From a virus: DNA of 64,000 nucleotides. The DNA is taken from the IMG/VR virus record IMGVR_UViG_3300032240_001872, positions 1 to 64,000 of that record; one strand, written 5' to 3'. The notes under the pieces were generated by a model. The model was not told the origin of the DNA, searched no databases, and saw nothing but the letters and a program-made list of their open reading frames with translations. Numbering within the stretch: position 1 is the first letter of the stretch; every line of letters begins with the position of its first letter. Shown here one piece after another: positions 23,129 through 63,984 of the stretch. A program made the translations under genes and the position numbers.

Positions 23129-23470
23129 ATGGATGAAAGATTAGTCAAGGCATTAGAACATGCTGATTATCGACAGACTCTTGGTATTGAAAGACAGCGG
23201 TTAAAAGACAAAGCTCACGCAGATCTTATCATAGGCTACAATGGTGGCATGTTTACTGTTGATCGAACACTTATTGGATTTGTAACAGCTATCAAAGAAT
23301 ACGGATCTGCTGTTATTTTAGATGACAACGGATATCCAGTTGAAATTGAAGACCTAGATGAATTCCAAGCAAGGGTAGTTGGTACATATTTTGAAGTTAC
23401 CAACAAATACCTAACAGACTATAACGAAATCAAACAAAAAAGATCTGCGGCAAAATTGGTGGATTTATGA
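23129..23470 (+). CDS. Hypothetical protein
   Basis: Clean ORF, MDERLVKALEHADYRQTL..., coupled (ATGA) to the first glycosyltransferase-like gene. Confidence 0.75.
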   Translation: MDERLVKALEHADYRQTLGIERQRLKDKAHADLIIGYNGGMFTVDRTLIGFVTAIKEYGSAVILDDNGYPVEIEDLDEFQARVVGTYFEVTNKYLTDYNEIKQKRSAAKLVDL

Positions 23471-24297
23471 ACCAAGGTTGTTGTATATTTGCCTACGACG
23501 GCGATATAGCCTACGGCACTCAAGCGGCTCTGTCAGCTCGGTTAGTTAAGAAATATCTTAATATACCTGTTAGTCTTATAACAGATGAAGATACTTCGAA
23601 GCGGGTTGATCACAGTATTTTTGATCAAATCATTATAACTGAAATAGAAGACACAGGTAACTCACGTATGCTGTCCGGAGAAGCCATTGCTTTTAAAAAC
23701 ACCAACAGAAATAAAATCTACGATCTTACTCCGTATGATCGTACACTATTAATCGACAGTGATTTTTTAGTATTCAGTAATCGTCTAAAAGATTATTTAG
23801 ATAGTGGTTACAATTTTATGATATGCGAAAACATGAAAGATCTATGCCCCAATAGACCCGGAAGTAAAGTCACGTTCGGTCCAGCAAGTCTTCGCATGCT
23901 GTGGGCAACAAATATTATATTCAACAAAACTCCCGAAAATAAAATTCTTTTTGATCTAGTAGAACACATTCGCGAAAACTGGGAATGGTATGGAGTGCTT
24001 TATCATTTTGATACCAGGAGATTCCGTAACGACTATGCATTTACAGTAGCATGTCATATTATGGGAGGATTTGGCGCTGATCAATATTATATAGCCTTGC
24101 CTAGTCCCATATTGTTTAATGATCAAGATTCATTAGTTGGTAAGAAGGCCGTGGAAAAAATAATAGCTAAAAAAGATCTAACATGGATTGTTGGGGAGCA
24201 AAACATATTAGTTAAAACGCAAAATCAAGATATTCACATGATGAACAAACTAGATTTACTGAAAAAAATAGATACATTTTTAAATTTATATGATTGA
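23467..24297 (+). CDS. GT-A fold glycosyltransferase-like protein
   Basis: LTPYDRTLLIDSDFL DxD motif, FRNDYAF, HMMNK. Paralog of the next gene. Confidence 0.7.
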   Translation: MNQGCCIFAYDGDIAYGTQAALSARLVKKYLNIPVSLITDEDTSKRVDHSIFDQIIITEIEDTGNSRMLSGEAIAFKNTNRNKIYDLTPYDRTLLIDSDFLVFSNRLKDYLDSGYNFMICENMKDLCPNRPGSKVTFGPASLRMLWATNIIFNKTPENKILFDLVEHIRENWEWYGVLYHFDTRRFRNDYAFTVACHIMGGFGADQYYIALPSPILFNDQDSLVGKKAVEKIIAKKDLTWIVGEQNILVKTQNQDIHMMNKLDLLKKIDTFLNLYD

Positions 24298-25150
24298 TAA
24301 ACTTTTAGACAAAGGCTATTTTATGATAGCCAATAGTACCAAAGAAACCAACTATATAAGATTGGCCTATGTTACTGCGTTGACTATAAAATTGACTCAG
24401 CCAGACGGATATAATAATGTAAGCATAGCCACCACCCATGTACAAAATGCACAATCTTTAAAGTTGTCTTGGGTTTTTGATAGCATCATTGATTACGAAG
24501 GTCCTAAAGGTATGAACGCAAGATCACGTGCTTACGAACATACTCCTTATAAAGAAACAGTATTCATTGATAGCGATTTCCTTTTCCTCAATGATGTGAG
24601 CCACTGGTGGCCGTACATGCAGAAACACGATTTATGGTGTGCTACTCGTCCTATGACATTCCGAGGTGAGACAATGACCAGCAAATATTATCGGCAAGCG
24701 TTTGTTGATAATAATTTACCAGATTTTTATTCGGGATGGCTCTATTTTAAACAGAGTAGGGAAACATCTAAATTTTGGGATATCATGCGAGCGTTAACTG
24801 ACTACCCAGAAACATGGAAAGATCAATTAACTGGTTGCAATTTTGAAAGTATTCCTACAGACGAAGCATGCGCCCTAGCCGCCAAAATGTTAGACATAGT
24901 AGAAGACATGAGCGATCCTAAAATGCCGTTTCCTAGATTTACTCACATGAAACCAAAAAGTCAAGGGTTTGTCGATGGCGTTAATTGGCCGGACTACATT
25001 GCCTTTTATTATAACAAAGATTTTAATGTAAAAATAGGACCATATCATCAACAAGATATTTTGCATTATACCAAGAAAGATCTAATAAGCGATGGCTTGA
25101 TTAACATGTTAGAGGAGAAAGTATGGAACAAGTACAAAGATATTATGTAA
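24290..25150 (+). CDS. GT-A fold glycosyltransferase-like protein
   Basis: HTPYKETVFIDSDFLF DxD motif, YSGWLYFK, PTDEA, FTHMK. Confidence 0.7.
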   Translation: MIDKLLDKGYFMIANSTKETNYIRLAYVTALTIKLTQPDGYNNVSIATTHVQNAQSLKLSWVFDSIIDYEGPKGMNARSRAYEHTPYKETVFIDSDFLFLNDVSHWWPYMQKHDLWCATRPMTFRGETMTSKYYRQAFVDNNLPDFYSGWLYFKQSRETSKFWDIMRALTDYPETWKDQLTGCNFESIPTDEACALAAKMLDIVEDMSDPKMPFPRFTHMKPKSQGFVDGVNWPDYIAFYYNKDFNVKIGPYHQQDILHYTKKDLISDGLINMLEEKVWNKYKDIM

Positions 25151-25686
25151 AGTTTGATTCTTCTACATTAGAAATTAAGTCAATGGGGCAACATTATACA
25201 GAAGAGCCCGGATGTTCTATACTAGAGGTTGATTGGAATTTAATAAAACCATTTTTTGTTGATTTTAAAAACCTATATGAGTTCTATCCTCTAATTGAAA
25301 ATGAAAAAATTACAGGATTTAGACGTAAGCGCATGTTCATGAGTCAATTGGTTAAAAATGACGACTTAGAAACAGTTAAATCCTTAAGACCTTATGAAAA
25401 TTTTATTGCAGACTGTGCAATAATAGCTTTGCTAGATAACAACGTTTTAAAATTGCATTACGATAAAGATCATTTTGACAGTCTTACCAATCAAGAAAAT
25501 ATTGAAAGATTGACATTAGTTAAAGGAGTAATGTATAATATACATATTACAGAAAAGGGTAATCCTTATTGTTTGTATGACTGTCAAGAAATACAAGTAG
25601 ACGACTTAATAGAAGGAATACCAATTTTATTACCATATACAGGGCCAACACCTATTTCAGTTTATGTCTCTACTAAAAATCAATGA
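25123..25686 (+). CDS. Hypothetical protein
   Basis: In-operon ORF with a GAGGAG SD. No motif recognised. Confidence 0.7.
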   Translation: MEQVQRYYVKFDSSTLEIKSMGQHYTEEPGCSILEVDWNLIKPFFVDFKNLYEFYPLIENEKITGFRRKRMFMSQLVKNDDLETVKSLRPYENFIADCAIIALLDNNVLKLHYDKDHFDSLTNQENIERLTLVKGVMYNIHITEKGNPYCLYDCQEIQVDDLIEGIPILLPYTGPTPISVYVSTKNQ

Positions 25687-26539
25687 ACTAGATTGCGTGT
25701 TCATCTCTTATGATGAACCAAATGCAGAACTAAACTATGCCAAGTTGCTATATGAAGCTCCGTGGGCAAAACGTGTTCACGGAGTTAAAGGTAGTGATGC
25801 TTGCCACAAGGCTGCGGCCAACCTGAGCGAAACAGAGTGGTTTGTTACTGTGGACGCAGACAATATTGTTAATCCTAAGTTTTGGGATTTAGAAATTGAG
25901 TTAGACAATTATCCAAATGCACAGGCATTTAACTGGCCAGGTCGCAATAACATCAACGGCTTGCGTTACGGCAACGGCAGTCTCAAGGCATGGCGTAAAG
26001 ACTTTGTGCTTAATATGAAAACACACGAGGCCGCAGAGGAAGACAAAGGTCAGGTAGACTTTTGTTGGGAAGCTGGTTATTATCCGCTTACTGTTAGTTA
26101 CTCAGATACGATTATAAACACAACTCCATTACAAGCATGGCGAGCAGGATTTCGTGAAGGTGTAAAGATGTGTTTAGATCGCGGCATACGATTAGAACAA
26201 GGCAAGAACGCTAAGGAAGTCATATGGTGGGAGAACCTACATAGGCTAAAGCAGTGGCTCACGTTGGGTATACATGCTGATCAAGGTGCGTGGGCAATAG
26301 TCGGTGCGTGGCAAGGCGTTTACCTTACTATGTGTACTGATTGGGACATTACCAATGTCCGAGATTTTGAAGTACTAAATGAAATGTTTAGTAGAATAGC
26401 CGGCATAGATCCCTTAGAACTAATTCAAATGTATCAAATAAAAACAAAAGATTTTATCAGTGTGCCTGTACTCAATGCAGATACAAGCGCCTATGTAGTT
26501 AACACCTTTGACGAATTTTACAGGCTCAATCGTGTATGA
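25664..26539 (+). CDS. Glycosyltransferase-like protein (GT2-like, DxD)
   Basis: FISYDEPNAE, RVHGVKG...H, VTVDADN, YGNG, AWRAGFREGVK. Confidence 0.65.
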   Translation: MSLLKINELDCVFISYDEPNAELNYAKLLYEAPWAKRVHGVKGSDACHKAAANLSETEWFVTVDADNIVNPKFWDLEIELDNYPNAQAFNWPGRNNINGLRYGNGSLKAWRKDFVLNMKTHEAAEEDKGQVDFCWEAGYYPLTVSYSDTIINTTPLQAWRAGFREGVKMCLDRGIRLEQGKNAKEVIWWENLHRLKQWLTLGIHADQGAWAIVGAWQGVYLTMCTDWDITNVRDFEVLNEMFSRIAGIDPLELIQMYQIKTKDFISVPVLNADTSAYVVNTFDEFYRLNRV

Positions 26540-27233
26540 TATAATTTTTATTAGTTACGGAGAACCAAACGCTGAGGACAACTATCAGCGGGTTAAATCA
26601 CGATTTCCTTTAGTAAAGCGTGTTAAGGATGTTAAAGGAATACATCAAGCACACGTGGCGGCCGCCCGTAAGAGCTTTACTGAAATGTTTTGGGTCGTCG
26701 ACGGCGATGCTCATATTCTAGATTCTTTCAACTTTGATTATAAAGTACCCGAATGGGATTTAGAATGTGTGCATGTGTGGCGCAGTCGAAACCCGCTTAA
26801 TAACTTAGAATATGGCTACGGCGGAGTTAAACTGTTACCTAAAAAACTCACGATAAAAATGGATATATCAAAACCAGATATGACAACCAGCATCAGCACC
26901 AAGTTTAAAGCCATGGAAGAAGTTAGTAATATCACAGCATTCAATACAGATGCATTTAGTACTTGGCGAAGTGCTTTTAGAGAGTGTGCCAAACTCTCTA
27001 GCAAAGTTATCGATGGCCAAGTAGATACAGAAAGCGAAGCTAGGTTATATTTTTGGTGTCAGTTAAACACACATGTTCCGTTTGGAGCGCAAGGCTATGC
27101 AGGGGCGCTGTCTGGCAGAAAATTTGGCCTCGAGAACGTAGCTGAAATAAGTAAGATTAACAATTACGAATGGTTAAAAGAACAATATGAACTGGCTTAT
27201 AAGAATATTAACGACTCCCTGGCGCTGGTATAA
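26532..27233 (+). CDS. Glycosyltransferase-like protein, paralog of 25664-26539
   Basis: Likely GTG start at 26532. FISYGEPNAE, VKGIHQAH, WVVDGDA, YGYGG, TWRSAFRECAK. Confidence 0.65.
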   Translation: MYDIIFISYGEPNAEDNYQRVKSRFPLVKRVKDVKGIHQAHVAAARKSFTEMFWVVDGDAHILDSFNFDYKVPEWDLECVHVWRSRNPLNNLEYGYGGVKLLPKKLTIKMDISKPDMTTSISTKFKAMEEVSNITAFNTDAFSTWRSAFRECAKLSSKVIDGQVDTESEARLYFWCQLNTHVPFGAQGYAGALSGRKFGLENVAEISKINNYEWLKEQYELAYKNINDSLALV

Positions 27234-27288
27234 AACTCGCCAACATATTAAAGAATTGCGTAAGCGCGACCCATTTATCTACAAATGA
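27187..27288 (+). CDS. 33-aa peptide ending RDPFIYK (not in ORF track)
   Basis: MNWLIRILTTPWRWYKTRQHIKELRKRDPFIYK. It fills the gap between genes and its TGA overlaps the carbamoyltransferase ATG (ATGA). Confidence 0.7.
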   Translation: MNWLIRILTTPWRWYKTRQHIKELRKRDPFIYK

Positions 27289-28778
27289 TTACTTGGGGGA
27301 TATCAGCTAACAGTCATAATGCGGCAGTTGCTGTGTTTGCTAATGAACGACTGGTATTTGCTTCTGAAACAGAAAGATGGAGCGGAATTAAAAACGATCC
27401 AGACCTCGATAAAGATCTAATATACGATTTACATTATAAGGGTCTTACACCAGATCAAGTAGTTTGGTACGAGCGGCCATTAGTTAAAACTTTTAGACAA
27501 CTCGAGGCAGGACAAGGTTGGCGCTACAAAGAAAACAACATAAAAAGATATCTAAAAGAATATCTTCCTAGTACTCCAATAAAATATGTAAGCCATCACA
27601 AGAGTCATGCCGCAGGCGGCTACCATACCAGTGGGTTTAATAGTGCATGCATCGTTGTCATAGATGCAATTGGAGAATATGAGTCTCTTAGCATTTGGTC
27701 TGGCGTAGGAGAAGAATTACATAAAGTTTATAGTTTAGATTATCCTAATAGCATTGGTTTATTTTATAGTGCTATGACACAACGCTGTGGACTAAAACCC
27801 AACGAAGAAGAATATATTCTTATGGGAATGGCCGCATACGGAAATCCTAAAAGACTATGGAAAGAAATGCTTTCCGATTTTATAAGTTTGCCAAATGATG
27901 ACTGGGGACATATCTTCCGTCTCAAGCAAAATCTGCATAGAGGATGCCTAGATTGGAGGCCCGACTTAACTACCGAACAAGATATATTTGATATTGCGGC
28001 GGCTACACAATATATCTATGAAATGATATTTGAAAGAATATTAATGTGTGCCAGTCAAGATGTAGATCTTACGCCTAATCTTGTTATTGCGGGCGGGTGC
28101 GCATTAAACTGTGTAGCTAATCGCCTGGCAGGCAAGTACTTTAACAACGTTTGGATTATGCCTGCGCCCGGGGACAGTGGTAGTGCTATAGGAGCGGTGC
28201 TGGCCGCAAACCCAAATTGGAGGATGCGCACTGGAGAATTTACTCCCTTCCTTGGGCACGATATGGGAAGTCACGTAACTAATCATGAAATAGTGTCCTA
28301 TTTAGAACAACACCAGATATGCGGTGTTGCTAGAGGTCGAGCAGAGTTCGGTCCTCGTGCATTAGGCAATAGAAGTTTGTTAGCCGATCCCCGTGGCAAA
28401 GACATTAAGGAAACAGTAAATGCAATTAAACAACGACAACAATTTAGACCATTTGCTCCCGCAATTTTGGAGGAGCTATGCGACACTTACTTTGATATGC
28501 CTAGCGGTTGGAGTGATAGTAGGTATATGCAAGTCGTCGCTCGCTGTAGGGTTCCTGAGCTATTTCCTGCTATCGTTCATGCTGACGGGACTTCTCGTGT
28601 GCAAACTGTTCCAAAAGACGGAAGCAAGTTTAGAGAACTCTTAGAATTATGGTATGCTCGGACAGGATGTCCTATGTTGTTGAACACCAGCTTAAACATT
28701 AAAGGCAAGCCGATGGTTAATGATGCCAACGATGCGTTAGAATTTCAAAACACCTATAATGTCAAAGTGTTTACGTAG
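27285..28778 (+). CDS. O-carbamoyltransferase (NodU/CmcH/TobZ family)
   Basis: HHKSHAA, DAIGE, MGMAAYG, AGGCALN, PGDSG, RAEFGPRALGNRS, FRPFAP, LNTSLN. Confidence 0.95.
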   Translation: MITWGISANSHNAAVAVFANERLVFASETERWSGIKNDPDLDKDLIYDLHYKGLTPDQVVWYERPLVKTFRQLEAGQGWRYKENNIKRYLKEYLPSTPIKYVSHHKSHAAGGYHTSGFNSACIVVIDAIGEYESLSIWSGVGEELHKVYSLDYPNSIGLFYSAMTQRCGLKPNEEEYILMGMAAYGNPKRLWKEMLSDFISLPNDDWGHIFRLKQNLHRGCLDWRPDLTTEQDIFDIAAATQYIYEMIFERILMCASQDVDLTPNLVIAGGCALNCVANRLAGKYFNNVWIMPAPGDSGSAIGAVLAANPNWRMRTGEFTPFLGHDMGSHVTNHEIVSYLEQHQICGVARGRAEFGPRALGNRSLLADPRGKDIKETVNAIKQRQQFRPFAPAILEELCDTYFDMPSGWSDSRYMQVVARCRVPELFPAIVHADGTSRVQTVPKDGSKFRELLELWYARTGCPMLLNTSLNIKGKPMVNDANDALEFQNTYNVKVFT

Positions 28779-30248: not shown

Positions 30249-30267
30249 TATTAATCCCGGTATACCT

Positions 30268-34421: not shown

Positions 34422-34425
34422 GCTG

Positions 34426-34440
34426 TATTTAAGATAAATA
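34426..34440. promoter_or_regulatory. Back-to-back TAAATA boxes
   Basis: Minus TAAATA-CAGC-ATG (34421). Plus TAAATA-CCTACATA-ATG (34449). Confidence 0.6.
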
Positions 34441-34448
34441 CCTACATA

Positions 34449-37831: not shown

Positions 37832-37835
37832 AAAA

Positions 37836-44723: not shown

Positions 44724-44728
44724 ATTCA

Positions 44729-44757
44729 TATTTACTTTATAAACTACTCAGTAAATA
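44729..44757. promoter_or_regulatory. Back-to-back TAAATA boxes
   Basis: Minus TAAATA-TGAAT-ATG (44723). Plus TAAATA-CAGTC-ATG (44763). Confidence 0.6.
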
Positions 44758-56057: not shown

Positions 56058-56100
56058 GGAAATATTTATGTACCTACATAATAGGGTAAATATTTCCATG
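56055..56100. repeat. Perfect 14-bp inverted repeat containing both start codons and both TAAATA boxes
   Basis: CATGGAAATATTTA (56055-56068), 18-nt spacer, TAAATATTTCCATG (56087-56100). Confidence 0.9.
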
Positions 56101-57159
56101 AGTGCTACCATCTGCGCATATCCTTGGAATAGTTTAGCTATAAACCCTAATGGTAGGGTGCTTCCTTGCTGTCGGTACGCCGCACCAAACTATACTATTG
56201 TAGACTATTCAAGAACATCAGAACATTGGAACGAGCTACGCAATAGAATGTTAGCTGGAGAGAAATCTCAAGGCTGTGAAAAATGTTATAGAGATGAGGC
56301 AAGCGGTAATACCAGTATGCGTCAACGTAGTCTTGACTTTGTACCAAAAGAAAACCAAATAGTACCTTTAGACAAGCTAGAGATCTCATTCAACAACTTG
56401 TGCAATTTGGCATGCGTACATTGCAGTAGTGCATATAGCACCACATGGTATTCAGAGGACTATAAGAAAGGTAAGATTGGTAAAATAGGAATCATTGAAA
56501 ACAGTTTTCCTATAACCGATGAAGACCTTAGTCAGTTAACTGAACTAAAGATTATAGGTGGTGAGCCAATGCTACAGCAAGACAAGTTTATCGAGCTGTT
56601 AGACAAGGTTAACTTATCTAACCTAACTGTATGGATATATACTAACGGTACACACTTGCCTAATAATAGACTATTGGCACAGTTAAAAAAATGCAGAGAG
56701 TTTAAACTAAGTGTTAGTGTTGACGGCATAGATACTGTTAACGATTGGTATAGATGGCCCAGCAAGTTCGATCAAGTTATAGAAAACATGAAGGTATACG
56801 ACGAATGGTTCAATCAACAGAAACGAGTGCATTGTGTAATTAATGCGGTTAATGTTATGTACTTAGAAGAGTACATAGATTTTATGACAACTAATTTTTC
56901 AACATGGGAAATAGAATGGGATTGGATAGTGCATCCAGAGTGGCAACGAGTATCTGTGCTACCTAATACTATCAAAGAACAATTGATTGCTGACTTTAGT
57001 AATAAAGGATATCCCTATACCACTACTATAGATAGGCTGTCTGATAAGATCAGTCTCGATTGGACTGATTTTAAAAACAATGTAAATCAATTATCATCTG
57101 ATAGAAACTTAGATTTTCTAGCAATGGTACCAAAATTTTCTAAGGCATGGAATGAGTAA
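56098..57159 (+). CDS. Radical SAM enzyme with N-terminal Twitch-like domain (class C)
   Basis: ICAYPW...GRVLPCC...CEKC, CNLACVHC, IGGEP, YTNG, SVDG. ATG at 56098. Confidence 0.9.
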   Translation: MSATICAYPWNSLAINPNGRVLPCCRYAAPNYTIVDYSRTSEHWNELRNRMLAGEKSQGCEKCYRDEASGNTSMRQRSLDFVPKENQIVPLDKLEISFNNLCNLACVHCSSAYSTTWYSEDYKKGKIGKIGIIENSFPITDEDLSQLTELKIIGGEPMLQQDKFIELLDKVNLSNLTVWIYTNGTHLPNNRLLAQLKKCREFKLSVSVDGIDTVNDWYRWPSKFDQVIENMKVYDEWFNQQKRVHCVINAVNVMYLEEYIDFMTTNFSTWEIEWDWIVHPEWQRVSVLPNTIKEQLIADFSNKGYPYTTTIDRLSDKISLDWTDFKNNVNQLSSDRNLDFLAMVPKFSKAWNE

Positions 57160-58414
57160 TAGTAAAACATTTTGTATGCATCCTTTTACAGGATTAGCTA
57201 CTAGAGAAGACGGCGCTGTTAAAGTTTGCTGTCGTAGTCAACCCGTTGGGTTTATACAAAACCATAGTTTGGAGGAGATATGGAACGGCCCTACTATGCG
57301 TAGAATACGCAAAGATGTTCTAAGCGACAAGCGTCCGCCAGAATGTATGCCATGTTTCCAATTAGAAGATCAAGGCGTAGAAAGTCTACGTCAACGACAC
57401 ACTAATGGTATTATTCCTGAAGCACGTATAAATCTATATCCTAATGCTTTGGACAGTTTAGGTAATGATTATAAGATGCCGTTTGAGTTTCCAACTATAG
57501 AGATTAAACTTAACAATCTATGCAATCTTAAATGCCGTATGTGCAATCCACTAGACAGCACCAACTGGAAAGATTGGGATCAAGTTGAAGAGTTTTATAA
57601 AAAAGAAAACAACTATCTTGTACCTACAATACAAAAGTTGGTCAACAAGCCAGGACAGTATATAGGTCCATTTGACAATACAGAAAATTGGTGGCACAGT
57701 TTTGAAAAGCTATTACCGCATTTTCGTCGTGTAGAGTTTGCAGGCGGGGAACCATTAATGGATCCGCAACATTACAAGATATTAGATATGCTCAAACCTT
57801 ATGGTAAGGATATTGAGATCAAGTATGCCACTAATGGCACAACGCTAGGAATTAGCAAAGGAAGAACTATACATGATTATTGGCCCCATTTTAGATCAGT
57901 TGCCGTTAATGTCAGCCTTGACGGCATTGGTCCTGTTTACGAGTACATACGTGGTAACTCTAATTGGACTGAAGTTGTGGAGAATATTCAAGACATACAA
58001 ACAATCTCGAACGTCAGCAGAGTCGTTGGCGCCGTTGCAGTACAAGTAAGTAATGTGTTAATCTTAGATAAAATGATTGAAGAGTTTCTTGACAAAATGG
58101 GCGTTGTATTTTATACTAACATGGTGCAACATCCAAATGTTTTATCTGTTCAGGTATTGCCAAAGGCTCTAAAAGACCTAGCCATCACAAGGTTACAGGC
58201 AGTAAAATTAAAAGTACCTGACTACAAATATGTCAAAGAAAACCCTATCCTATTAGGCATAACATTAAAACAAATAGACGGTGTAATTAATTACTTGAAC
58301 GCAAAAGATCAGCATAGCAAATGGAAAGATTGTATTGAATTTAATCGTAGATTAGATGTGACCCGTAATCAAAGTTTTCTTGATGTCACCCCAGAGTTTA
58401 AACCGTATGCTTAA
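57152..58414 (+). CDS. Radical SAM enzyme with N-terminal Twitch-like domain (class C)
   Basis: FCMHPF...VKVCC...CMPC, CNLKCRMC, FAGGEP, ATNG, SLDG. Confidence 0.9.
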   Translation: MSNSKTFCMHPFTGLATREDGAVKVCCRSQPVGFIQNHSLEEIWNGPTMRRIRKDVLSDKRPPECMPCFQLEDQGVESLRQRHTNGIIPEARINLYPNALDSLGNDYKMPFEFPTIEIKLNNLCNLKCRMCNPLDSTNWKDWDQVEEFYKKENNYLVPTIQKLVNKPGQYIGPFDNTENWWHSFEKLLPHFRRVEFAGGEPLMDPQHYKILDMLKPYGKDIEIKYATNGTTLGISKGRTIHDYWPHFRSVAVNVSLDGIGPVYEYIRGNSNWTEVVENIQDIQTISNVSRVVGAVAVQVSNVLILDKMIEEFLDKMGVVFYTNMVQHPNVLSVQVLPKALKDLAITRLQAVKLKVPDYKYVKENPILLGITLKQIDGVINYLNAKDQHSKWKDCIEFNRRLDVTRNQSFLDVTPEFKPYA

Positions 58415-59333
58415 AGTTACAGGCCGTTGGGGACATGAGAGTTCTATCAAAGTAGAATGGAACCTTGGAAAACGCTGTAACTACGACTGTACATATTGTC
58501 CAACAAGTATACACGATAACTCTAGCGACCATATTGATATAGAAACGCTCAAAAAAGTTATAGACCAATTAGTTGCGCTAGGAAAGCCTATTAGACTCAG
58601 TTTTACTGGGGGCGAACCTACTGTACATCCTAAATTTGAAGAACTTGTTAACTATGCTAAACATGTTGGTATACATTGGATCAGCGTGACTACCAACGGT
58701 ACACGCAAGCCCGAATGGTATGATCGATTGCGAGTAGATCAATTTGTGTTTAGTGTACACTTTGAATATGACTATCAGCGAGTTATACATACTATAACAA
58801 GCCTTAAGAACTTTGCTAAAACATCTATTGTTGTACAACTAATGGCCCATCACGATCATATGGCAAACGTTAAAGATGTAGCAGAATACTTAAAGATTAT
58901 GGAGTTTCCTTTTACTGTTCGTAGAATACGCTGGACGGAAGGTGATCATAATATTTTTGATGACATGCGATATCACCCAGATGATTTTAAGTGGCTTATG
59001 GAGCGAGAAGCAACAGTTAAGACCAATGTAATAATTTGGTTAGACGACAAGTATACACAAATACCAAAACATGCCAACGATGTTATAAAAGAACATCTAA
59101 ACAAATTCAAAGGGTGGACCTGTAATGCAGGCATAGAAAGTCTAATGATCAACTGGGACGGAGATGTGCATCGTGCAACTTGTAGGGTAGGCGGCAGTCT
59201 AGGTAATATATACGAAGGCAACTTTATTGTACCTAATGAATCTGTAACTTGCGATCGAGACTTCTGCACCTGTGCGGCAGATATTCCGTTGACTAAGATT
59301 AAGTCTTTGAGTTTTCAATCAGTTGAATCATAA
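58407..59333 (+). CDS. Radical SAM enzyme (class A)
   Basis: WNLGKRCNYDCTYC, TGGEPT, TTNG, SVH, WTCNAG...ATC...CDRDFCTC. Likely ATG at 58407. Confidence 0.9.
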   Translation: MLKVTGRWGHESSIKVEWNLGKRCNYDCTYCPTSIHDNSSDHIDIETLKKVIDQLVALGKPIRLSFTGGEPTVHPKFEELVNYAKHVGIHWISVTTNGTRKPEWYDRLRVDQFVFSVHFEYDYQRVIHTITSLKNFAKTSIVVQLMAHHDHMANVKDVAEYLKIMEFPFTVRRIRWTEGDHNIFDDMRYHPDDFKWLMEREATVKTNVIIWLDDKYTQIPKHANDVIKEHLNKFKGWTCNAGIESLMINWDGDVHRATCRVGGSLGNIYEGNFIVPNESVTCDRDFCTCAADIPLTKIKSLSFQSVES

Positions 59334-59547
59334 AAGAACTGCAATTTCTAAAAGTTTCAAGCATTTTATCAGGGTCAGCTAACCACTGTTTATATTGCTC
59401 AGTCTGTTGCCAAGATTGTGCGGTGTGTCCATCAAATTGATGTAGTCTATCGGCCAAATCGTACATTGGATCCCCAGGAAAGTCTAAATCATTTATTAAA
59501 CTAAAAGATTCTAAGATTTCTACAGTTATGCGGTTAGCAGTTTTCAT
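59299..59547 (-). CDS. Hypothetical protein (82 aa)
   Basis: Last gene of a minus-strand operon, with its start overlapping the upstream gene end. Confidence 0.55.
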   Translation of the reverse strand: MKTANRITVEILESFSLINDLDFPGDPMYDLADRLHQFDGHTAQSWQQTEQYKQWLADPDKMLETFRNCSSFMIQLIENSKT

Positions 59548-60724
59548 TTATTATTCTCATTGTAATTGTATGTTGAGTTTCACTAAGATGATTTATCAGT
59601 ATCTTCATATTGTGATCCCAATTAGATTTAACTTCTAACAACTCTTTTTCCAGATCATTAGGATTATTGTCAAAATGTTGTAAGGCATTAATTGTTGCTG
59701 TTAATCTTTTGGCAGGGTCTTTTATTTTATCAATTTGGTAAGTTATCTGGGAGAATTTAAAATCATATAAATCTGTCAATGTGTGATAAAGATCAAAACT
59801 TGCTACAGGTAATATAACTTGCCTGAACAATATTGGTTTTAGAGTTTTTTCAGTAAAAAATAAGTTGTTCTCAAAAAAATGAGTTTCTGTACATACATTT
59901 ATAGGAGCATCTAATGCTTCATCATTTTTCATAGACGGTAAAGTTTCAGAATCCATACTGATAGTATCAACTGATAAAGGTAACAGTTTATTGAGTTCTA
60001 TCAATTCTTCACGAGTTATCTCTATTCCAAGTTGTTTTCCTAAACTAATACATCGACTATTGAAATGTGATAGATGCATAGACACTATCCCTTTATCTAA
60101 TAACTTTTCTTTATACAACATATAAAAGATAAAGATGCGGCCCCACCTTTTATGTCTGTTAAAACTCCAATATAGTTTTTTGTATTGAGTAGGAATTAAA
60201 TTAGGCCATTCATTCGTAAAAAACTCCTTAGTATCTTGCGCATTATATCCCTTTGCAATCGACCCTAATAACAACTGAGAAAAATGTAGATTTGGAAAGT
60301 ATTTTGCTTTGAACGGCGGTTTTTTTACTCGCATGGTTCGACACCATTTTAAAAAACTTCTATCTGTATCAATATCATTATCAACATAGCAAAGAGTTTT
60401 TGGTCGAAACCTATTATAAAAGGACATTAGAAATTCATATACGGGCTGTTGACTCTTAGATTCAATAGGGCACTGACCTAATAACTTTATAGGGCCTTCG
60501 TATACATTGTTTATTATTACATGATCAAAACTTTTAATCCATTCTTGATCTTTTATTATTATAGGAGATAGTTCTAAAGAAAACAAATTAAACAGTTCAA
60601 TAACAAGAACATTTGCTTTATCACTGGAGTTATATCGCCGGCCACTGACGTCGACGTTTTCAATTATTGCCGATGTTTGATTCAATTGCCAAAGTTTATA
60701 ACAAGTGTATGCCAATTCTGTCAT
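59534..60724 (-). CDS. Hypothetical protein, possibly GT-B glycosyltransferase-like
   Basis: SFNRHKRWGR...VCTETHF...FFTEKTLKPI, reminiscent of the (I/V)TEK donor-binding motif of GT10-type enzymes. Confidence 0.5.
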   Translation of the reverse strand: MTELAYTCYKLWQLNQTSAIIENVDVSGRRYNSSDKANVLVIELFNLFSLELSPIIIKDQEWIKSFDHVIINNVYEGPIKLLGQCPIESKSQQPVYEFLMSFYNRFRPKTLCYVDNDIDTDRSFLKWCRTMRVKKPPFKAKYFPNLHFSQLLLGSIAKGYNAQDTKEFFTNEWPNLIPTQYKKLYWSFNRHKRWGRIFIFYMLYKEKLLDKGIVSMHLSHFNSRCISLGKQLGIEITREELIELNKLLPLSVDTISMDSETLPSMKNDEALDAPINVCTETHFFENNLFFTEKTLKPILFRQVILPVASFDLYHTLTDLYDFKFSQITYQIDKIKDPAKRLTATINALQHFDNNPNDLEKELLEVKSNWDHNMKILINHLSETQHTITMRIINENC

Positions 60725-61725
60725 GTGAATTGAGATCCAGATTTATCAAATTTACCGCATTGCTTGGCACATTCATACAAGGGATTCCCGTTCCATGTTT
60801 CTTCAATTTTATTAAAGTATCCCGAATCAAATACATCTTGTAATGTTTGCTCGTGTAGGTTAGGAAACTCTCCTATCTTATCCATAAAGTCAATTCTAGT
60901 ATGTTGTTTGTGTAACTTTTCTTTAAAATCAATCCAACAGCACGGGCTTATGTTTCCGCTGGCAGCAACGTAAATCTGTTGATACTTAACAGCTTTACAT
61001 GTTATTGTACAGTTAGAAACTATTTGCTCTGATGGCAAGTCTCTAGAATATTGTAGTATCTGCGGCAACATGGTTTCTGTTTTAGAACTTGGGTATAGGC
61101 TGTAGATAGTCTTGCCCTCATCATCTAATACAGGAAACTTAACATCCGTAAATCTAGTTGTATGTTTTATTTGAAACTTTCTAAATCCTAGTTGTTCCGA
61201 TAAAGAACGACAGTTTTCAATTTGGTGTTCATTATGTTTGAATACTAACATGTGCCACTCAGCTTCGCCACCTACTTGTATAAATGCTTGAGCATTTTCT
61301 ATAATTTTGTCGTAATTCGTATCTATTCTATGTAAACTATGTGTGTCAGCAAGCCCGTCTATTCCAAATACAACCCTAGTACCTGTGTAAGCAATTTGTT
61401 CCCACCATTGTGCGCTTCTAGCACTACCGTTGGTATGCATGCTCAAATGTATAGTGGGATTTACTTCTCTCAAGTACTGTAGTATTTCCAAACAGTCTTT
61501 AGCAATTATAGGATCGCCTAGGTTACCGCACATGAACAAACTGTTTAACTGTTTGATAAAATCTACACTGAACCATAACTTGAAAGTCTCTAGGTCAATT
61601 TCAACTAAGGACATTAGTGGATTTAACATGCCGCCGTTAATACGTCTTGGGCACATAGGACAACGTGCTTGACATTTAGTTGTTACTTCTAAATGAATAT
61701 CTCGGATATCTTTTAAATTATACAT
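60721..61725 (-). CDS. Radical SAM enzyme with SPASM/Twitch-type C-terminus (class B)
   Basis: CQARCPMC, GNLGDP, HTNG, FGIDG, IYVAASGNISPCC...CAKQCG. Paralog of 39292-40356. Confidence 0.9.
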   Translation of the reverse strand: MYNLKDIRDIHLEVTTKCQARCPMCPRRINGGMLNPLMSLVEIDLETFKLWFSVDFIKQLNSLFMCGNLGDPIIAKDCLEILQYLREVNPTIHLSMHTNGSARSAQWWEQIAYTGTRVVFGIDGLADTHSLHRIDTNYDKIIENAQAFIQVGGEAEWHMLVFKHNEHQIENCRSLSEQLGFRKFQIKHTTRFTDVKFPVLDDEGKTIYSLYPSSKTETMLPQILQYSRDLPSEQIVSNCTITCKAVKYQQIYVAASGNISPCCWIDFKEKLHKQHTRIDFMDKIGEFPNLHEQTLQDVFDSGYFNKIEETWNGNPLYECAKQCGKFDKSGSQFT

Positions 61726-62311
61726 GTCCAATAATCATCCAACGAGTATATAAAGGTAGATGTAGATGTCCTGCCCATATTATGTTATTAAGATGGCATT
61801 GTTTTTTAAAATGATCTAAACTGTCTGCAGGCCTAACATGTTCATCTATTGCGTAGTTATTGCTCTGTAGCACTAACAAACTATTGTGTGGCATTCCGCT
61901 CAACCATAGGTCATATTGATCTTGTGTAATATGTTCGCAACTGGTATTAATAACTAGATCTGCATCACTACGGATAGCACACATATCAGAAGTAACTGCT
62001 ACAAAACGGCCTTCTATTTCTTCTTTCTTGTTCATCATTGTAGCCACGTGCTGACATAACGGGTCAATATCAACGCTACGAATAGTTGTAACAGGCACAC
62101 GACTCTGGAACAGCATACTGGCTAATACTCCTACCCAACCACCGTGTATATCTACACTGATAGGATTAACAATAGTCGATTCTAAGGCATTGATTAACCA
62201 TTCTTTACTCTTAAGTTGCCCGCTCCAGAACGCATCCATAGTACGCATTGGATTATTGCTTTCACGGATGGCACACATCCAGTAATGTAAGTGTTCAGTA
62301 TCTATTAGCAT
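61718..62311 (-). CDS. Class I methyltransferase-like protein
   Basis: IHGGWVG, RSVDIDP, SDM, INTSCEH. Confidence 0.65.
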   Translation of the reverse strand: MLIDTEHLHYWMCAIRESNNPMRTMDAFWSGQLKSKEWLINALESTIVNPISVDIHGGWVGVLASMLFQSRVPVTTIRSVDIDPLCQHVATMMNKKEEIEGRFVAVTSDMCAIRSDADLVINTSCEHITQDQYDLWLSGMPHNSLLVLQSNNYAIDEHVRPADSLDHFKKQCHLNNIIWAGHLHLPLYTRWMIIGHV

Positions 62312-63270
62312 TTCTTTTTATTCATATTGGTTTCAAAATTGCACCAGCATGCTGGTTGCTGGCAAATAGTTGTAGTTATTTCTGGTTGAAACTTTTCCAT
62401 AAAGTCTTCATCAAACACATTATACTCTTTACCATTGTATAGTTTGTTTCCGCATATACCGGATACTTCTCCGTCAAATTTAACATTTAGCCAATCAACT
62501 CCTAAATTACATTCCCATCCTTTAAAGTTGTTTAGCCTATCTGTTACTATTTGATGATCGTTTACCTTGTGCTTCTTACCTGCCTCATCTATTACTGAAG
62601 TTTTAATGCTCCTTATAGATGCTGTTTTTAAATAATACAGTATATTAGAACTACGAATAGTCAATGTCTTTAGTAGCTCTTTCTGTTCATCAGTGTAGGA
62701 TGCCTTGTCATGTATAACTTCAGAACATCTAATGCTCCAAGCATGTTTACTATTCTTGTAGTATTCTATGGCATTGACACATTCATCCCACAGAGAGGGA
62801 TCCATCATAACTTCTACATTTACTAACACATTCTTTGAATACAGATAATCAGCTACATCTCTATTGTGTTCTTTCTTAGAAAACGATTGATGATGGCTTA
62901 TTGATATTCTGTCTAAGTAAGGTCCTGCTTGTTTCCACCAATCAAGTTTCTTAGATGCGTTAGTAGTCAAAGAAAACCGGCAGTCATAATTCTGTTTAAA
63001 ATGCTTGATGAAATCAACAAACCTAGACCAATGGGTCACTTCTCCTCCAATTAGGTGTATTTGAAACTTTTTCTTATTAGTATGTTCTTTATAATAATCT
63101 AGTATATAGGAAATATGTTTAACGTACAAGTCAAAGTCTGGCCATTTGTACGTGCCAGTGTTACACCCCGGAAAACAATACCAACATTTATAGTTACAGA
63201 TGTTACCTATGTAGAGATCAATCCTAAAGAAATCATCAGGCCAGGGTTGTTTTACTTCAACTATGTTCAT
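62305..63270 (-). CDS. Radical SAM enzyme (class A)
   Basis: CNYKCWYC, IGGEVT, TTN, SHH, WECNLG...IC...CQQPACWC. Likely ATG at 63270. Confidence 0.9.
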   Translation of the reverse strand: MNIVEVKQPWPDDFFRIDLYIGNICNYKCWYCFPGCNTGTYKWPDFDLYVKHISYILDYYKEHTNKKKFQIHLIGGEVTHWSRFVDFIKHFKQNYDCRFSLTTNASKKLDWWKQAGPYLDRISISHHQSFSKKEHNRDVADYLYSKNVLVNVEVMMDPSLWDECVNAIEYYKNSKHAWSIRCSEVIHDKASYTDEQKELLKTLTIRSSNILYYLKTASIRSIKTSVIDEAGKKHKVNDHQIVTDRLNNFKGWECNLGVDWLNVKFDGEVSGICGNKLYNGKEYNVFDEDFMEKFQPEITTTICQQPACWCNFETNMNKKKC

Positions 63271-63274
63271 GATG

Positions 63275-63305
63275 TATTTAAACGTATTATAGTAGCATAT
63301 AAATA
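63275..63305. promoter_or_regulatory. Back-to-back TAAATA boxes
   Basis: Minus TAAATA-CATC-ATG (63270). Plus TATAAATA-TTTC-ATG (63310). Confidence 0.6.
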
Positions 63306-63309
63306 TTTC

Positions 63310-63984
63310 ATGATACCAATATTCATAGGCTACGATCCTAAAGAAGCAATAGCATACCATACGTGTGTTAACAGTATAATACGAACTGCATCTAAGCCTA
63401 TATCAGTTATACCATTATCATTAAATCTATTAGATGGTTATACCGAAACTCATATTGACGGTAGTAATACTTTTACCTATACAAGATTTCTAGTACCTAC
63501 TCTGATGGACTACAAAGGCTGGGCTATCTTTGTAGACGGAGATATGTTACTACGCGACGACATTAACAAACTATGGGAGTTGCGAGATGAAAGCAAAGCA
63601 GTTATGGTTGTTAAACATGATTACGAAACTAGAGCAAATAGCAAGTATCTCAAAGCAAGAAATAATAACTATCCCAGAAAAAATTGGTCAAGCGTCATCT
63701 TATGGAATTGCGGGCATGCCAGCAATAGAAACATTACCGCAGAGTTTGTACAACAATCAACAGGAGACTTTCTGCATAGATTTTCCTGGTTAGATGATCA
63801 ACAGATTGGAGAGCTACCAAAGGAATGGAATTGGTTAGACGTTGAATACGAATGGAACCCACTTGCAAAATTAGTACACTACACATTAGGAACACCGTGT
63901 TTCCATGAGTTTGCTGATAAAGGAGACTTTGCTGATGAATGGCACAAAGAACGCATATTAACAAATCATGCTGACCAAGTATAA
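63310..63984 (+). CDS. GT8-like glycosyltransferase
   Basis: MIPIFIGYD, FTYTRFLVP, FVDGDML, RKNWSSV, EWNWL, VHYTLGTP. ATG at 63310. Confidence 0.85.
   Translation: MIPIFIGYDPKEAIAYHTCVNSIIRTASKPISVIPLSLNLLDGYTETHIDGSNTFTYTRFLVPTLMDYKGWAIFVDGDMLLRDDINKLWELRDESKAVMVVKHDYETRANSKYLKARNNNYPRKNWSSVILWNCGHASNRNITAEFVQQSTGDFLHRFSWLDDQQIGELPKEWNWLDVEYEWNPLAKLVHYTLGTPCFHEFADKGDFADEWHKERILTNHADQV

Follow-up and report, generated by a model that had tools for sequence, protein, structure and literature searches.

A radical SAM-rich enzyme island beside fiber-type genes of an uncultured giant T4-type phage: a possible virion-linked glycan-tailoring system

The stretch of DNA analyzed here (the window, 64,000 nucleotides) covers the opening 64 kb of an IMG/VR virus fragment 79.7 kb long, and that fragment represents ~22% of a genome of about 350-360 kb. 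Fiber-like and cell-wall hydrolase genes on the contig, and the T4-type gp23 capsid protein encoded by its relatives, support the phage origin given by the original prediction; the source is an uncultured giant (jumbo) phage of the T4-type/T4-superfamily. More than 40 kb is given to ~50 soluble enzymes, 13 radical SAM proteins among them (Table 1). The island had been placed at 23467-63984, and the enzyme families named for that interval are all present, but its real span is larger, beginning near 13.1 kb and reaching 71.2 kb of the contig or beyond. It had also been described as co-oriented with the genes upstream, which holds for the first seven genes (23129-28778) but not for the remainder, where there are at least 10 strand switches. 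S8 subtilases lie beside the island, and fiber-like genes adjoin it in the window as they do in a 99%-complete relative (G001). No NRPS, PKS or transporter family is matched in the island, as predicted, and none of its proteins has a credible transmembrane helix. Late-type promoter boxes, previously taken to favor a virion target, make a weak argument; copies of the canonical T4 late box TATAAATA are fewer than expected (2 vs 8.9).

Table 1. Features of the island and associated genes (window and contig numbering coincide; aa, amino acids).
Position	Strand	Feature	Basis
9234-10073		Nucleotide-sugar epimerase	PHROG 540
13140-13448	-	IscA/HesB-type A-type Fe-S carrier-like, first of two	GCSG...CGCG motif and paralogy to 16610-16936 only
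16610-16936	+	IscA/HesB-type Fe-S carrier-like; heads conserved plus-strand operon	Motif
16943-17854	+	X-domain protein 1, Ser/Thr/Asn-rich, globular	No Pfam match
17864-18748	+	X-domain protein 2	27% identical to paralog 16943-17854, E 6e-21
18703-23115	+	1470-aa protein: S8 subtilase, BD-FAE esterase, He_PIG Ig domain, X-domain	Pfam; PHROG 9158
23129-23470	+	Conserved 113-aa protein, always ahead of GT8-like pair	
23467-24297	+	GT8-like glycosyltransferase, DxD motif IDSDF	Family profile
24290-25150	+	GT8-like glycosyltransferase, paralog of 23467-24297	Profile
25123-25686	+	Conserved 187-aa protein, function unknown	
25664-26539	+	GT2-like (GT-A motif) protein	Relatives' Pfam; ESM Atlas 0.88
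26508-27233	+	GT2-like protein, paralog of 25664-26539	
27187-27288	+	33-aa peptide ending DPFIYK	Stop overlaps carbamoyltransferase start
27285-28778	+	O-carbamoyltransferase, NodU/CmcH/NovN/TobZ family	Pfam Carbam_trans_N and Carbam_trans_C
30268-31215	-	Radical SAM class A, C-terminal Cys cluster, core	Pfam
31190-34421	-	Two B12-type radical SAM paralogs, 543 and 537 aa, accessory	Pfam
34449-35207	+	SGNH-hydrolase-like protein, GDSH block	Motif only
35204-35554	+	AdoMetDC-like protein	PF02675, E 1.7e-15
35551-36633	-	Radical SAM with N-terminal HMPTM-type zinc ribbon	Pfam
36624-37166	-	Conserved 180-aa core protein, function unknown	In 44/91 loci compared
37154-37831	-	Minimal protein-kinase-fold core protein	pLDDT 90
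37866-38669	+	Fe/2OG dioxygenase-fold core protein, HRD...H	Predicted fold
38671-39297	+	Second kinase-fold protein	Paralog of 37154-37831, E 3e-8
39292-40356	-	Radical SAM/SPASM class C	Pfam 27.8 bits; CX3CX2C; paralogy
40356-41414	-	TauD-family Fe/2OG oxygenase	Pfam
41401-42042	-	Class I SAM methyltransferase	Pfam
42027-42635	-	2OG-FeII_Oxy_5 oxygenase	Pfam
42632-44110	-	Third B12-type radical SAM	Pfam
44112-44729	-	SDR-like protein, TGxxxGIG	Motif
45416-46609	+	Class-III PLP aminotransferase	PF00202 (Aminotran_3), E 1.9e-43
46565-47638	-	Amidinotransferase	StrB1 (1bwd), E 8.5e-20, full length; ESM Atlas
48050-48712		SDR-like paralog of 44112-44729	39% identical, E 5e-44
48651-50622	-	443-aa unknown protein and Asp/Arg-hydroxylase-like oxygenase	
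51169-52286	-	Two paralogous cupin/2OG-like core proteins	HPD and HKD motifs
52923-53582	-	Asp_Arg_Hydrox-like core oxygenase	Pfam
53557-54648	-	Radical SAM class A, core	Pfam, locus comparison
54645-56111	-	N_Twi_rSAM, N-terminal twitch domain, core	NF033640, 389.8 bits vs cut-off 170
56050-57159	+	N-twitch radical SAM paralog	Pfam, alignment, BLAST
57152-58414	+	N_Twi_rSAM	Pfam, NCBIfam
58380-59333	+	Radical SAM class A, core	Pfam, locus comparison
60721-61731	-	Radical SAM/SPASM class C, core	Pfam, locus comparison
61718-62311	-	Rossmann methyltransferase-like core protein	Motif
62305-63360	-	Radical SAM class A	Pfam, paralog comparison
63115-63984	+	GT8 glycosyltransferase	PF01501, 29.4 bits vs cut-off 24.3
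Contig 67111-67863		Cytidylyltransferase and mannose-6-P-isomerase-type cupin	

A Ser/Thr-rich domain of ~290 aa, which we call the X-domain, occurs as two free copies and again at the C-terminus of the 1470-aa subtilase-esterase protein (residues 1147-1439; match to the second free copy, E 1e-32). It contains no mucin-like Ser/Thr tract, and we consider it a candidate acceptor or fiber-tip module. The operon runs from the X-domain through the 113-aa protein, two GT8-like genes and GT2-like genes to a radical SAM and a methyltransferase, and its order from X-domain to GT2-like genes persists down to 23-35% identity. Wherever a related locus extends far enough, X-domain protein 1 lies upstream of the glycosyltransferase genes, and the Fe-S carrier-like gene ahead of it (16610-16936) is found in the same place in over 10 related loci. 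Five glycosyltransferase-like genes are found where 5-6 had been predicted. The one at 63115, which probably begins further downstream than the listed ATG, is assigned by Pfam GT8, while the others are remote, putative assignments from family-level matches: the profile of the 23467 and 24290 family matches glycogenin (E 1.5e-6 over positions 14-114) and has D97 and D99 invariant, and members of the 25664/26508 family hit PF00535 or PF13641 (GT2) in 8 of 120 relatives. The protein at 25664-26539 has no PDB sequence match and is fused with its paralog (~535 aa) in most relatives.

In related loci the cluster accompanies glycosyltransferase-like and fiber-type genes, in keeping with the proposed linkage to virion genes. 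The cultured Ralstonia phage RsoM2USA carries the operon inside its tail operon, as ORF347-355, co-oriented with and directly after ORF356, 359 and 361, which are virion proteins verified by mass spectrometry (PMC8504454). That virion proteomics covered ten abundant bands only, and ORF355 is not listed (PMC8504454). GT2-like, radical SAM, GT2-like and methyltransferase genes are interleaved in RsoM2USA and in five IMG/VR loci (L205, L212, L215, L218 and L219). The second GT2-like protein of the window shares 45% identity with RsoM2USA ORF348, and the methyltransferase-like core protein at 61718-62311, present in 62 of the 91 loci compared, is a homolog of ORF347. The 33-aa peptide has weak matches with a similar C-terminal motif in G001 and RsoM2USA (E 0.19, 0.57), near or just upstream of their carbamoyltransferase genes.

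PF04055 matches 13 ORFs in 30268-63360, the number originally counted, and all but one pass the gathering score. The exception (39292-40356) falls short at 27.8 bits (cut-off 29.5), yet it retains CX3CX2C and has a paralog in 60721-61731 (E 3e-50). Together with a 14th gene outside the window (contig 65784-67151), these enzymes form five paralog classes, all with intact CX3CX2C. The class A gene at 30268-31215 is present in 78 of 91 IMG/VR loci compared and shares 44-50% identity with genes of Bdellovibrionales; no island gene is more conserved than the N_Twi_rSAM at 57152-58414, which recurs at ~70% identity in 301 IMG/VR stretches. A BtrN-type identity had been proposed for the twitch enzymes, but they belong to NF033640, whose twitch domain is N-terminal, and BtrN is not among their PDB sequence matches at E up to 1. 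Similarly, the supposed GenK/GenD1-like C-methyltransferases are indeed B12 radical SAM proteins (AprD4 match for the pair at 31190-34421, E 1.8e-7), but they score far under every NCBIfam equivalog cut-off.

The ~10 Fe/2OG-type genes expected within 23467-63984 are present, four backed by Pfam (40356, TauD; 42027; 49969; 52923), one by predicted fold (37866) and five by an HxD...H motif only (44691, 50610, 51169, 51732 and 52267). The gene at 37866 is the best conserved island gene outside the radical SAMs, and that at 52923 occurs in 71 of the 91 loci; the two genes at 48651-50622 correspond to a single fused protein of 740-808 aa in Bdellovibrionales. The SGNH-like gene probably starts inside ORF 34338-35207. 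The kinase-fold protein at 37154-37831 resembles the IRAK3 pseudokinase and RIO kinases (VIA Z 12.7, rmsd 3.2, 183 aligned residues), has no Asp among its invariant columns, and is possibly a pseudokinase. Two finer calls of the original prediction hold up well: the best matches of the carbamoyltransferase, NovN (E 7e-56) and TobZ (E 6e-35), are both sugar carbamoylases, and the best PDB match of the amidinotransferase is StrB1, with HsvA and SxtG matching too. The broader idea of aminoglycoside-like chemistry is upheld for the tailoring families, but no cyclitol synthase, 2-deoxy-scyllo-inosose synthase or DegT-type aminotransferase is matched.

We tentatively favor, as a plausible though far from secure reading, a virion-linked glycan-tailoring island that places a sugar-derived decoration on fiber-type virion proteins. 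In this scheme, soluble enzymes made during infection would start from an activated precursor, a sugar or a cyclitol-type compound, and turn it into an unusual building block, with the epimerase, nucleotidyltransferase-cupin, SDRs and aminotransferase handling the sugar. Guanidino and carbamoyl groups would come from the amidinotransferase and the carbamoyltransferase, respectively, and methyl groups from the class I methyltransferase and the B12 radical SAM proteins; the ~10 Fe/2OG oxygenases, together with radical SAM classes A, C and N-twitch, may then oxidize, epimerize or rearrange the product. The GT8-like and GT2-like transferases would then attach it to a fiber-type virion protein bearing the X-domain, and the two IscA-like carriers may assist in supplying the many Fe-S clusters. 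That the substrate is a sugar, which reaction each enzyme carries out and which acceptor is used are what we infer; the all-soluble set of island proteins agrees with a target in the cytoplasm, virion proteins for example. In favor of this reading, the amidino-, carbamoyl- and aminotransferases, SDR pair, epimerase and cytidylyltransferase-cupin are, judged by family, small-molecule or sugar enzymes rather than protein modifiers, and the conserved gene order, the position in the RsoM2USA tail operon and the neighboring fiber-like genes link the island to virion genes. Against it stand the remote glycosyltransferase assignments, the lack of a mucin-like tract in the X-domain and the occurrence of the radical SAM core in bacteria: it forms megaclusters in Bdellovibrionota chromosomes, and those of Bdellovibrionales lack X-domain and GT8-like genes and mostly canonical GT2, so the core chemistry need not be glycan chemistry. 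The fold matches of the core oxygenase at 37866 (AspH, AsqJ, PHD2 and AviO1, Z 9.5-9.9) also do not separate protein hydroxylases (AspH, PHD2) from sugar oxygenases (AviO1, EvdO).

The host envelope is a less likely target, with soluble transferases and tailoring enzymes modifying LPS core or another precursor at the cytoplasmic face. GT8 members are mostly LPS-core transferases, which makes this target possible, and lipid A hydroxylases among Asp_Arg_Hydrox relatives count in its favor. In Bdellovibrionales loci an LPG_synthase_TM membrane protein adjoins the radical SAMs, and in Vibrio phage K566 the radical SAM cluster lies apart from tail genes, near a PagP-like gene. An envelope-remodeling role has also been proposed for the host-recognition-cluster glycosyltransferases of pelagimyophages (PMC7029224). 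Against this, the island has no membrane, flippase, polymerase or Und-P transferase gene and is tightly linked to the X-domain and fiber genes, and the RsoM2USA operon sits among tail genes.

It is also conceivable, if rather unlikely, that the virion protein itself is edited in a RiPP-like or collagen-like manner, with X-domain or fiber residues epimerized, C-methylated and hydroxylated and the hydroxyls then glycosylated. Typical modifiers of peptides include SPASM/twitch and B12 radical SAMs as well as Asp/Asn hydroxylase-like enzymes, S8 subtilases adjoin the island, glycogenin-like GT8 enzymes act on protein, and the Mimivirus L230 hydroxylase-glycosyltransferase is a viral precedent. AspH and PHD2 are also at the top of the fold matches of the core oxygenase at 37866, within the tie noted above. 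However, the gaps between genes hold no conserved small ORF or precursor, no PqqD/RRE Pfam match is returned for the island, and the amidino-, carbamoyl- and aminotransferases, SDRs and epimerase act on small molecules, judged by family. Bacteria, moreover, carry the same radical SAM core without the X-domain.

A free aminoglycoside- or nucleoside-like small molecule made during infection, for example to inhibit competitors or host functions, is improbable. The tailoring families are common to aminoglycoside and novobiocin pathways, N_Twi_rSAM genes adjoin epimerase and carbamoyltransferase genes in actinomycete genomes, and an amidinotransferase, radical SAM and AHBA_syn-like gene in a cultured cyanophage have been labeled 'antibiotic synthesis genes' (PMC12801897). 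Yet the island has no cyclitol/scaffold synthase, resistance gene or exporter, and its five transferase-like genes and its link to the X-domain suggest that the product is joined to a macromolecule. Hypermodified bases in the phage genome are very improbable: T4-type phage DNA is glycosylated and known thymidine hypermodification systems include radical SAM, kinase-like, PLP and carbamoyl enzymes, but no TGT/DpdA is found in the window's contig or in four long relatives (the 99%-complete one included) in a search that matched control genomes, the kinase-fold protein has no invariant Asp, and the island is linked to fiber rather than nucleotide-metabolism genes (Tet_JBP gave no match in a search whose control was also silent).

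What is new here is a deeply conserved operon that ties the X-domain to these enzymes, and under the favored reading its product would decorate the virion. If the enzymes instead remodel the host envelope, a block to superinfection or altered adsorption would be possible.

We scanned IMG/VR with the GT2-like protein 26508-27233 and placed all window genes on the 30 loci recovered, in which the gene order around the start of the island proved to be strict. An IscA-like carrier is followed by one or two ~300-aa Ser/Thr/Asn-rich proteins and often a giant subtilase-esterase, then by a 113-aa protein, two GT8-like genes, a 187-aa protein, GT2-like genes, the carbamoyltransferase, and a variable set of radical SAMs and oxygenases; the more distant relatives have a 65784-type radical SAM between the two GT2-like genes. 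Scattering of the homologs independently of the glycosyltransferase-like genes was not seen, and across these loci the genes co-occur tightly. The Ser/Thr-rich proteins are paralogous, and the same domain, called the X-domain here, makes up the C-terminal part (residues 1147-1439; E 1e-32) of the 1470-aa protein, in which subtilase, BD-FAE esterase, Ig-like He_PIG domain and X-domain are fused. This fusion protein may itself be a virion enzyme that degrades a host surface layer. The X-domain has no Pfam, PHROG or named relative, and tblastn against cultured phages gave no match to it. Comparison of the window genes with 91 related IMG/VR loci separated a recurring core, comprising seven radical SAMs, the Fe/2OG-fold 37866, the kinase-fold 37154, the 180-aa 36624, the 51169/51732 pair, the AspH-like 52923 and the methyltransferase-like 61718, from accessory genes present in fewer of the relatives, namely the B12 radical SAMs, AdoMetDC-like protein, TauD, aminotransferase, amidinotransferase and SDRs.

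A minimal version of the module is present in a cultured phage. Searching cultured phages by tblastn, we found Ralstonia phage RsoM2USA (MG752970; 343.8 kb), whose ORF347-355 keep the gene order of the island's relatives. This module comes immediately after ORF356, 359 (tail sheath) and 361 on the same strand, and the baseplate genes ORF362-364 adjoin these. ORF356, 359 and 361 have been identified in virions by mass spectrometry, and the module genes are all annotated as hypothetical and are not discussed in that paper (PMC8504454). The RsoM2USA module has a single radical SAM, 36% identical to contig 65784-67151, while the island has 13-14. A second N-twitch-type radical SAM of this genome (ORF202; 35% identity to contig 65784-67151) lies elsewhere, close to the ligase and the carbamoyltransferase (46%). 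In Vibrio phages K566 and K567, five radical SAM genes form a cluster apart from the tail genes. The ~10-kb cluster of K566, a cultured KVP40-like vibriophage, lies amid NAD-salvage genes, with a PagP-like gene nearby.

The source record is a linear contig of 79,749 bp, of which bases 1-64000 form the window. CheckV puts its completeness at 22%, which implies a genome of ~360 kb (elsewhere we speak of a ~350-kb lineage), and none of 50,697 cultured phage records was a near match in a megablast with 24 kb. Radical SAM genes are also clustered, 9-16 per contig, in four long relatives of 186-353 kb that include a 99%-complete one, and all four encode the T4-type gp23 major capsid protein (PF07068); the window fragment stops short of the gp23 region. 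These features together indicate that the lineage is one of T4-superfamily jumbo myophages. On the contig, enzyme genes of the same kinds extend from ~13.1 kb to 71.2 kb or beyond, so the island is wider than the 23467-63984 of the original prediction. That prediction also had the island co-oriented with the virion genes, which holds for the first seven genes; the rest of the island changes strand at least 10 times. A family assignment is missing for about half of the ORFs. The G+C content of the island (24000-64000) is 35-39%, against 42-43% in the upstream fibre and subtilase region (1-8000), a contrast that a separate origin might explain, as might differing constraints. The halogenase-like gene upstream may contribute a halogenating step to the island's pathway.

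Features of the island, its surroundings and its counterparts. Genes may be named by start coordinate; L001 is a stretch of the same contig, in which 7111-7863 equals contig 67111-67863
Feature	Location	Strand	Remarks
S8 subtilase proteins (n=2)	18703-23115; 1195-2772	+; -	PHROG 9158; upstream of 23467
Fibre-like genes	2762-8415		upstream of island
HNH endonuclease, nucleotide-sugar epimerase, ATP-dependent DNA ligase			upstream of island
IscA/HesB-like A-type Fe-S carriers (n=2)	13140-13448; 16610-16936	-; +	flank island start
Flavin halogenase (tryptophan-halogenase-like)	13445-14701	-	PHROG 2928, E 2e-67; between IscA-like gene and oxygenases, upstream of 23467
PhyH-type and AspH-type oxygenases			upstream of island
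Free X-domain copies	16943-17854; 17864-18748		
33-aa peptide ending DPFIYK	27187-27288	+	overlaps carbamoyltransferase start
Class A radical SAM	30268, 53557, 58380, 62305		
B12-type radical SAM	31190, 32808, 42632		
SPASM radical SAM	39292, 60721		
N-terminal twitch radical SAM	54645, 56050, 57152, 65784		
Zn-ribbon-type radical SAM	35551		
Kinase-like core protein	37154-37831	-	
Three paralogous 390-470-aa proteins	59534-60724; L001 4526-5926; L001 10062-11228	-; -; -	common C-terminal 'EKTFKP...P(F/V)IL' motif
Cytidylyltransferase and mannose-6-P-isomerase-type cupin fusion	L001 7111-7863	-	past window
SleB-type cell-wall hydrolase	L001 8276-8995	-	past window; N-terminal hydrophobic segment
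2OG-Fe(II) oxygenase	L001 9380-10123	-	past window
RsoM2USA module, first part	ORF355->347		X-domain-like protein, 113-aa homolog, two GT8-like genes, small ORF
RsoM2USA module, rest	ORF355->347		GT2-like (41% identity), N-twitch-type radical SAM (36%), GT2-like (45%), methyltransferase homolog
K566 cluster, five N-twitch-type radical SAM genes	OZ196521; L189 18455-29423		
Bdellovibrionales megaclusters	G006 C15 171-213 kb; G007 C2 2131-2156 kb; G008 C91 141-170 kb		three genomes

The count of 13 radical SAM genes in the original prediction is one on which Pfam PF04055 and the CX3CX2C motif agree. Twelve ORFs exceed the PF04055 gathering cut-off of 29.5 bits, and 39292-40356 scores 27.8 bits but is paralogous to a passing member; every one of the 13 window ORFs has a single copy of the motif, as does a 14th, contig 65784-67151. 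These 14 proteins fall into five paralog classes. Against the whole-protein model NF033640 (N_Twi_rSAM; cut-off 170 bits), 54645-56111 scores 389.8 bits and 57152-58414 scores 339 bits, and both share with that family the N-terminal Cys cluster and CX3CX2C, while 56050-57159 and 65784-67151 are placed in the N-twitch class by BLAST paralogy only. The auxiliary cluster consists of invariant C8, C26, C27, C65 and C68, N-terminal to C124/C128/C131 of the core. NF033640 is catalogued without a known substrate, and the class covers only 4/14 of the island's radical SAMs. Among the B12-type enzymes, the B12-binding PF02310 stays under its cut-off of 32.1 bits (21.1 and 29.1 bits), and the best NCBIfam equivalogs score 56-70 bits against cut-offs of 360-600; the best solved-structure sequence match of one of them is AprD4 (E 1.8e-7), and a tblastn search with a B12 radical SAM found no match in cultured phages. 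The PDB sequence matches to the twitch radical SAM with E of 1 or lower did not include BtrN. The two IscA-like carriers are consistent with phage-supplied cluster loading for 14 radical SAM enzymes.

Nearly all of the remaining family inventory was likewise borne out by Pfam, NCBIfam and PDB sequence searches, two structure predictions and motif inspection. Ten Fe/2OG-type genes lie within 23467-63984, four recognized by Pfam, one by fold (37866-38669) and five by motif alone. Both NodU/CmcH/TobZ Pfam domains pass in the carbamoyltransferase (167 and 137 bits; the N-terminal domain is truncated, beginning at profile position 125), and its best solved-structure matches are NovN (E 7e-56) and TobZ (E 6e-35). 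The amidinotransferase, a predicted member of the StrB1/AGAT fold, aligns over its whole length with StrB1 (1bwd; E 8.5e-20, residues 2-350 against 5-341) and also matches HsvA, SxtG and AGAT. Pfam matches are clear for the aminotransferase, the AdoMetDC-like protein and one methyltransferase; the SDR pair, the SGNH block and the second methyltransferase were assigned from motifs and paralogy. A spermidine pathway pair (speE-speD) formed by 34338-35207 and the AdoMetDC gene was considered and rejected because 34338-35207 has an SGNH GDSH block and no spermidine synthase match. PDB sequence and profile searches of 37866, 34338 and 48651 returned nothing significant, and a PHROGs search of ten unannotated ORFs returned almost nothing.

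Fold searches place two core proteins in the Fe/2OG and protein-kinase folds and indicate no substrate for either. The kinase-like 37154 has a confident minimal protein-kinase fold (pLDDT 90; Z 12.7), no Asp is invariant across 31 aligned homologs, and the top structural match is a pseudokinase; the protein may thus be a pseudokinase that binds rather than phosphorylates. The second kinase-like protein is its paralog. The 33-aa DPFIYK peptide has weak matches (E 0.19 and 0.57; DPYIYK and DPFIYK) near or just 5' of carbamoyltransferase genes in the 99%-complete relative and RsoM2USA, and is probably a small accessory subunit.

Five genes are glycosyltransferase-like, with support of differing degree. 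PF01501 (GT8) is passed by 63115-63984 (29.4 bits, cut-off 24.3), and a profile of 23467 and 24290 matches glycogenin (E 1.5e-6) with an invariant DxD, where single-sequence Pfam had given no match. In the 25664/26508 family, PF00535 or PF13641 is found in 8/120 relatives; the window proteins have no Pfam match, the family has no PDB profile match, and its hhalign comparison with the GT8-like profile is not significant. The three paralogous 390-470-aa proteins have no Pfam or PDB match, and their C-terminal motif recalls GT-B transferases, which is no more than a lead.

Related cassettes are also found in bacteria. A scan of one genome per species recovered mostly Bdellovibrionales and other Bdellovibrionota, with some actinomycetes and Bacteroidota. 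Several phage genes each have their own ortholog, at 33-50% identity, within a single bacterial locus, while the phage paralogs are mutually only 20-29% identical; a multi-gene cassette is thus common to phages and bacteria. One such locus (L142) has 54645-, 30268-, 60721- and 53557-type radical SAMs with a carbamoyltransferase, and others add the amidinotransferase. NF033640 exceeds its cut-off in 45/201 Bdellovibrionota genomes sampled versus 0/14 control genomes. Three Bdellovibrionales genomes of ~3 Mb have ~10-13 such genes each, mostly in ~40-kb stretches, and these megaclusters are a large uncharacterized bacterial system in their own right. Their neighboring genes mostly have no Pfam match; ten neighbors tested gave two, Asp_Arg_Hydrox and LPG_synthase_TM. 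No X-domain or GT8-like gene turned up in the bacterial loci compared, and the megaclusters mostly lack canonical GT2 genes. This sharing between phages and Bdellovibrionota suggests gene exchange, or a common need of two kinds of bacterial predators.

Virus-encoded glycosylation has precedents. Chlorovirus and mimivirus glycans are made by virus-encoded transferases, and mycobacteriophage virions are reportedly glycosylated by phage-encoded transferases (Freeman et al. 2023, as cited in PMC12801897). Like the island, these systems have soluble virus-encoded glycosyltransferases beside structural genes; their acceptors are virion proteins on which glycosylation has been demonstrated, whereas for the island it is predicted. 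To our knowledge, these systems have few tailoring enzymes and no radical SAM battery. Similar genes are described in the host-recognition cluster (HRC) of pelagimyophages and cyanomyophages, which is rich in glycosyltransferases and has radical SAM cassettes (Zaragoza-Solas et al. 2020, PMC7029224), and in a T4-like genome of marine origin that has 12 radical SAM genes plus an ATC (Fe-S carrier) gene (Nishimura et al. 2017, PMC5332604). HRC and island are both hypervariable blocks beside the tail-fibre genes of aquatic T4-type myophages, with GT8-type transferases, Asp/Asn-hydroxylase-like genes, radical SAM cassettes and ATC genes nearby; the island combines fibre-like genes upstream, gene content that varies between relatives and a T4-type core in those relatives. 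The island differs in being bigger (>40 kb, 13-14 radical SAMs), in belonging to a ~350-kb lineage and in its defined operon. The two papers merely list the genes, reading them as related to LPS or Fe-S, and describe no conserved module. A 2025 cyanophage paper terms an amidinotransferase, radical SAM and aminotransferase 'antibiotic synthesis genes' (PMC12801897), and none of the three papers assigns a function to the gene set. What is new here is the X-domain in three copies and the conserved operon running from X-domain through glycosyltransferase and radical SAM to methyltransferase, together with its position among mass-spectrometry-verified tail proteins in RsoM2USA, the GT8-like profile evidence, and the StrB1 and NovN matches. 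Also new are the copy-number and distribution figures for Bdellovibrionota and the negative tests for DpdA, precursor peptides and membrane proteins.

The amidino-, carbamoyl- and aminotransferases, SDRs, epimerase and nucleotidyltransferase-cupin must act on small molecules, and their best characterized relatives act on sugars or cyclitols. The transferase-like genes are interleaved with radical SAM genes, no credible transmembrane helix was found in any ORF examined, and the module is tied to a fibre-type domain and, in RsoM2USA, inside a tail operon. Taken together, these observations make a sugar-derived decoration of the virion the most economical reading, if still a tentative one: soluble enzymes would build and edit the decoration in the cytoplasm, and X-domain or fibre proteins would receive it ahead of assembly. 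Late-type promoter boxes had been taken to favor a virion target, but this argument is weak, as the canonical T4 late box TATAAATA is rarer than expected in the window; just the shorter TAAATA is enriched, 5' of 7/69 gene starts versus ~0.6 expected, which is suggestive only.

Remodeling of the host envelope by the same enzymes would agree with the LPS reading of HRC genes, and is in our view unlikely but worth keeping in mind, the tail-operon linkage pointing to the virion. That the radical SAMs and oxygenases edit residues of virion proteins directly is rather doubtful: we found no conserved small ORF in island gaps and no PqqD match that would indicate a precursor peptide (RiPP), though a large protein substrate would escape this search, and the small-molecule enzymes point elsewhere. 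The "aminoglycoside-like" label of the original prediction is apt for the tailoring families, as StrB1, TobZ/NovN and AprD4 have counterparts in the island at low identities. It does not extend to the pathway, because no cyclitol-forming scaffold enzyme, DegT-type aminotransferase, or resistance or export gene was found among the Pfam-scanned ORFs, about half of which have no family match and could include a divergent form; a free metabolite is thus an improbable product. DNA hypermodification is very improbable, as no TGT/DpdA was found in the contig and its four long relatives while positive controls were detected; a Tet_JBP search likewise had no match, but its controls were silent as well.

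More speculatively, and with a low probability, the island and its Bdellovibrionota counterparts might form one uncharacterized system built on four co-inherited radical SAM classes. The product of such a system would be a C-methylated, cationic glycan (amino, guanidino, carbamoyl), made by undescribed radical carbohydrate chemistry and displayed on the attachment structures of jumbo phages and predatory bacteria, where it would bind the anionic surface of Gram-negative hosts or prey.

Radical SAM enzymes perform chemically hard reactions, and the maintenance in one phage of 13-14 such enzymes, some ten oxygenases and five transferase-like genes implies an unusually complex product of strong fitness value. 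The module is widespread, its best-conserved gene, a 420-aa N-twitch radical SAM, having 301 related IMG/VR stretches at ~70% identity and >3000 relatives among metagenome proteins, and papers mention it only in passing. The minimal RsoM2USA module and the K566/K567 cluster offer two culturable entry points, making the question testable now. If the product does decorate fibre proteins, phage host recognition, and possibly defense evasion, would gain an extra layer of chemistry, and a large set of new carbohydrate-active radical enzymes would be opened up.
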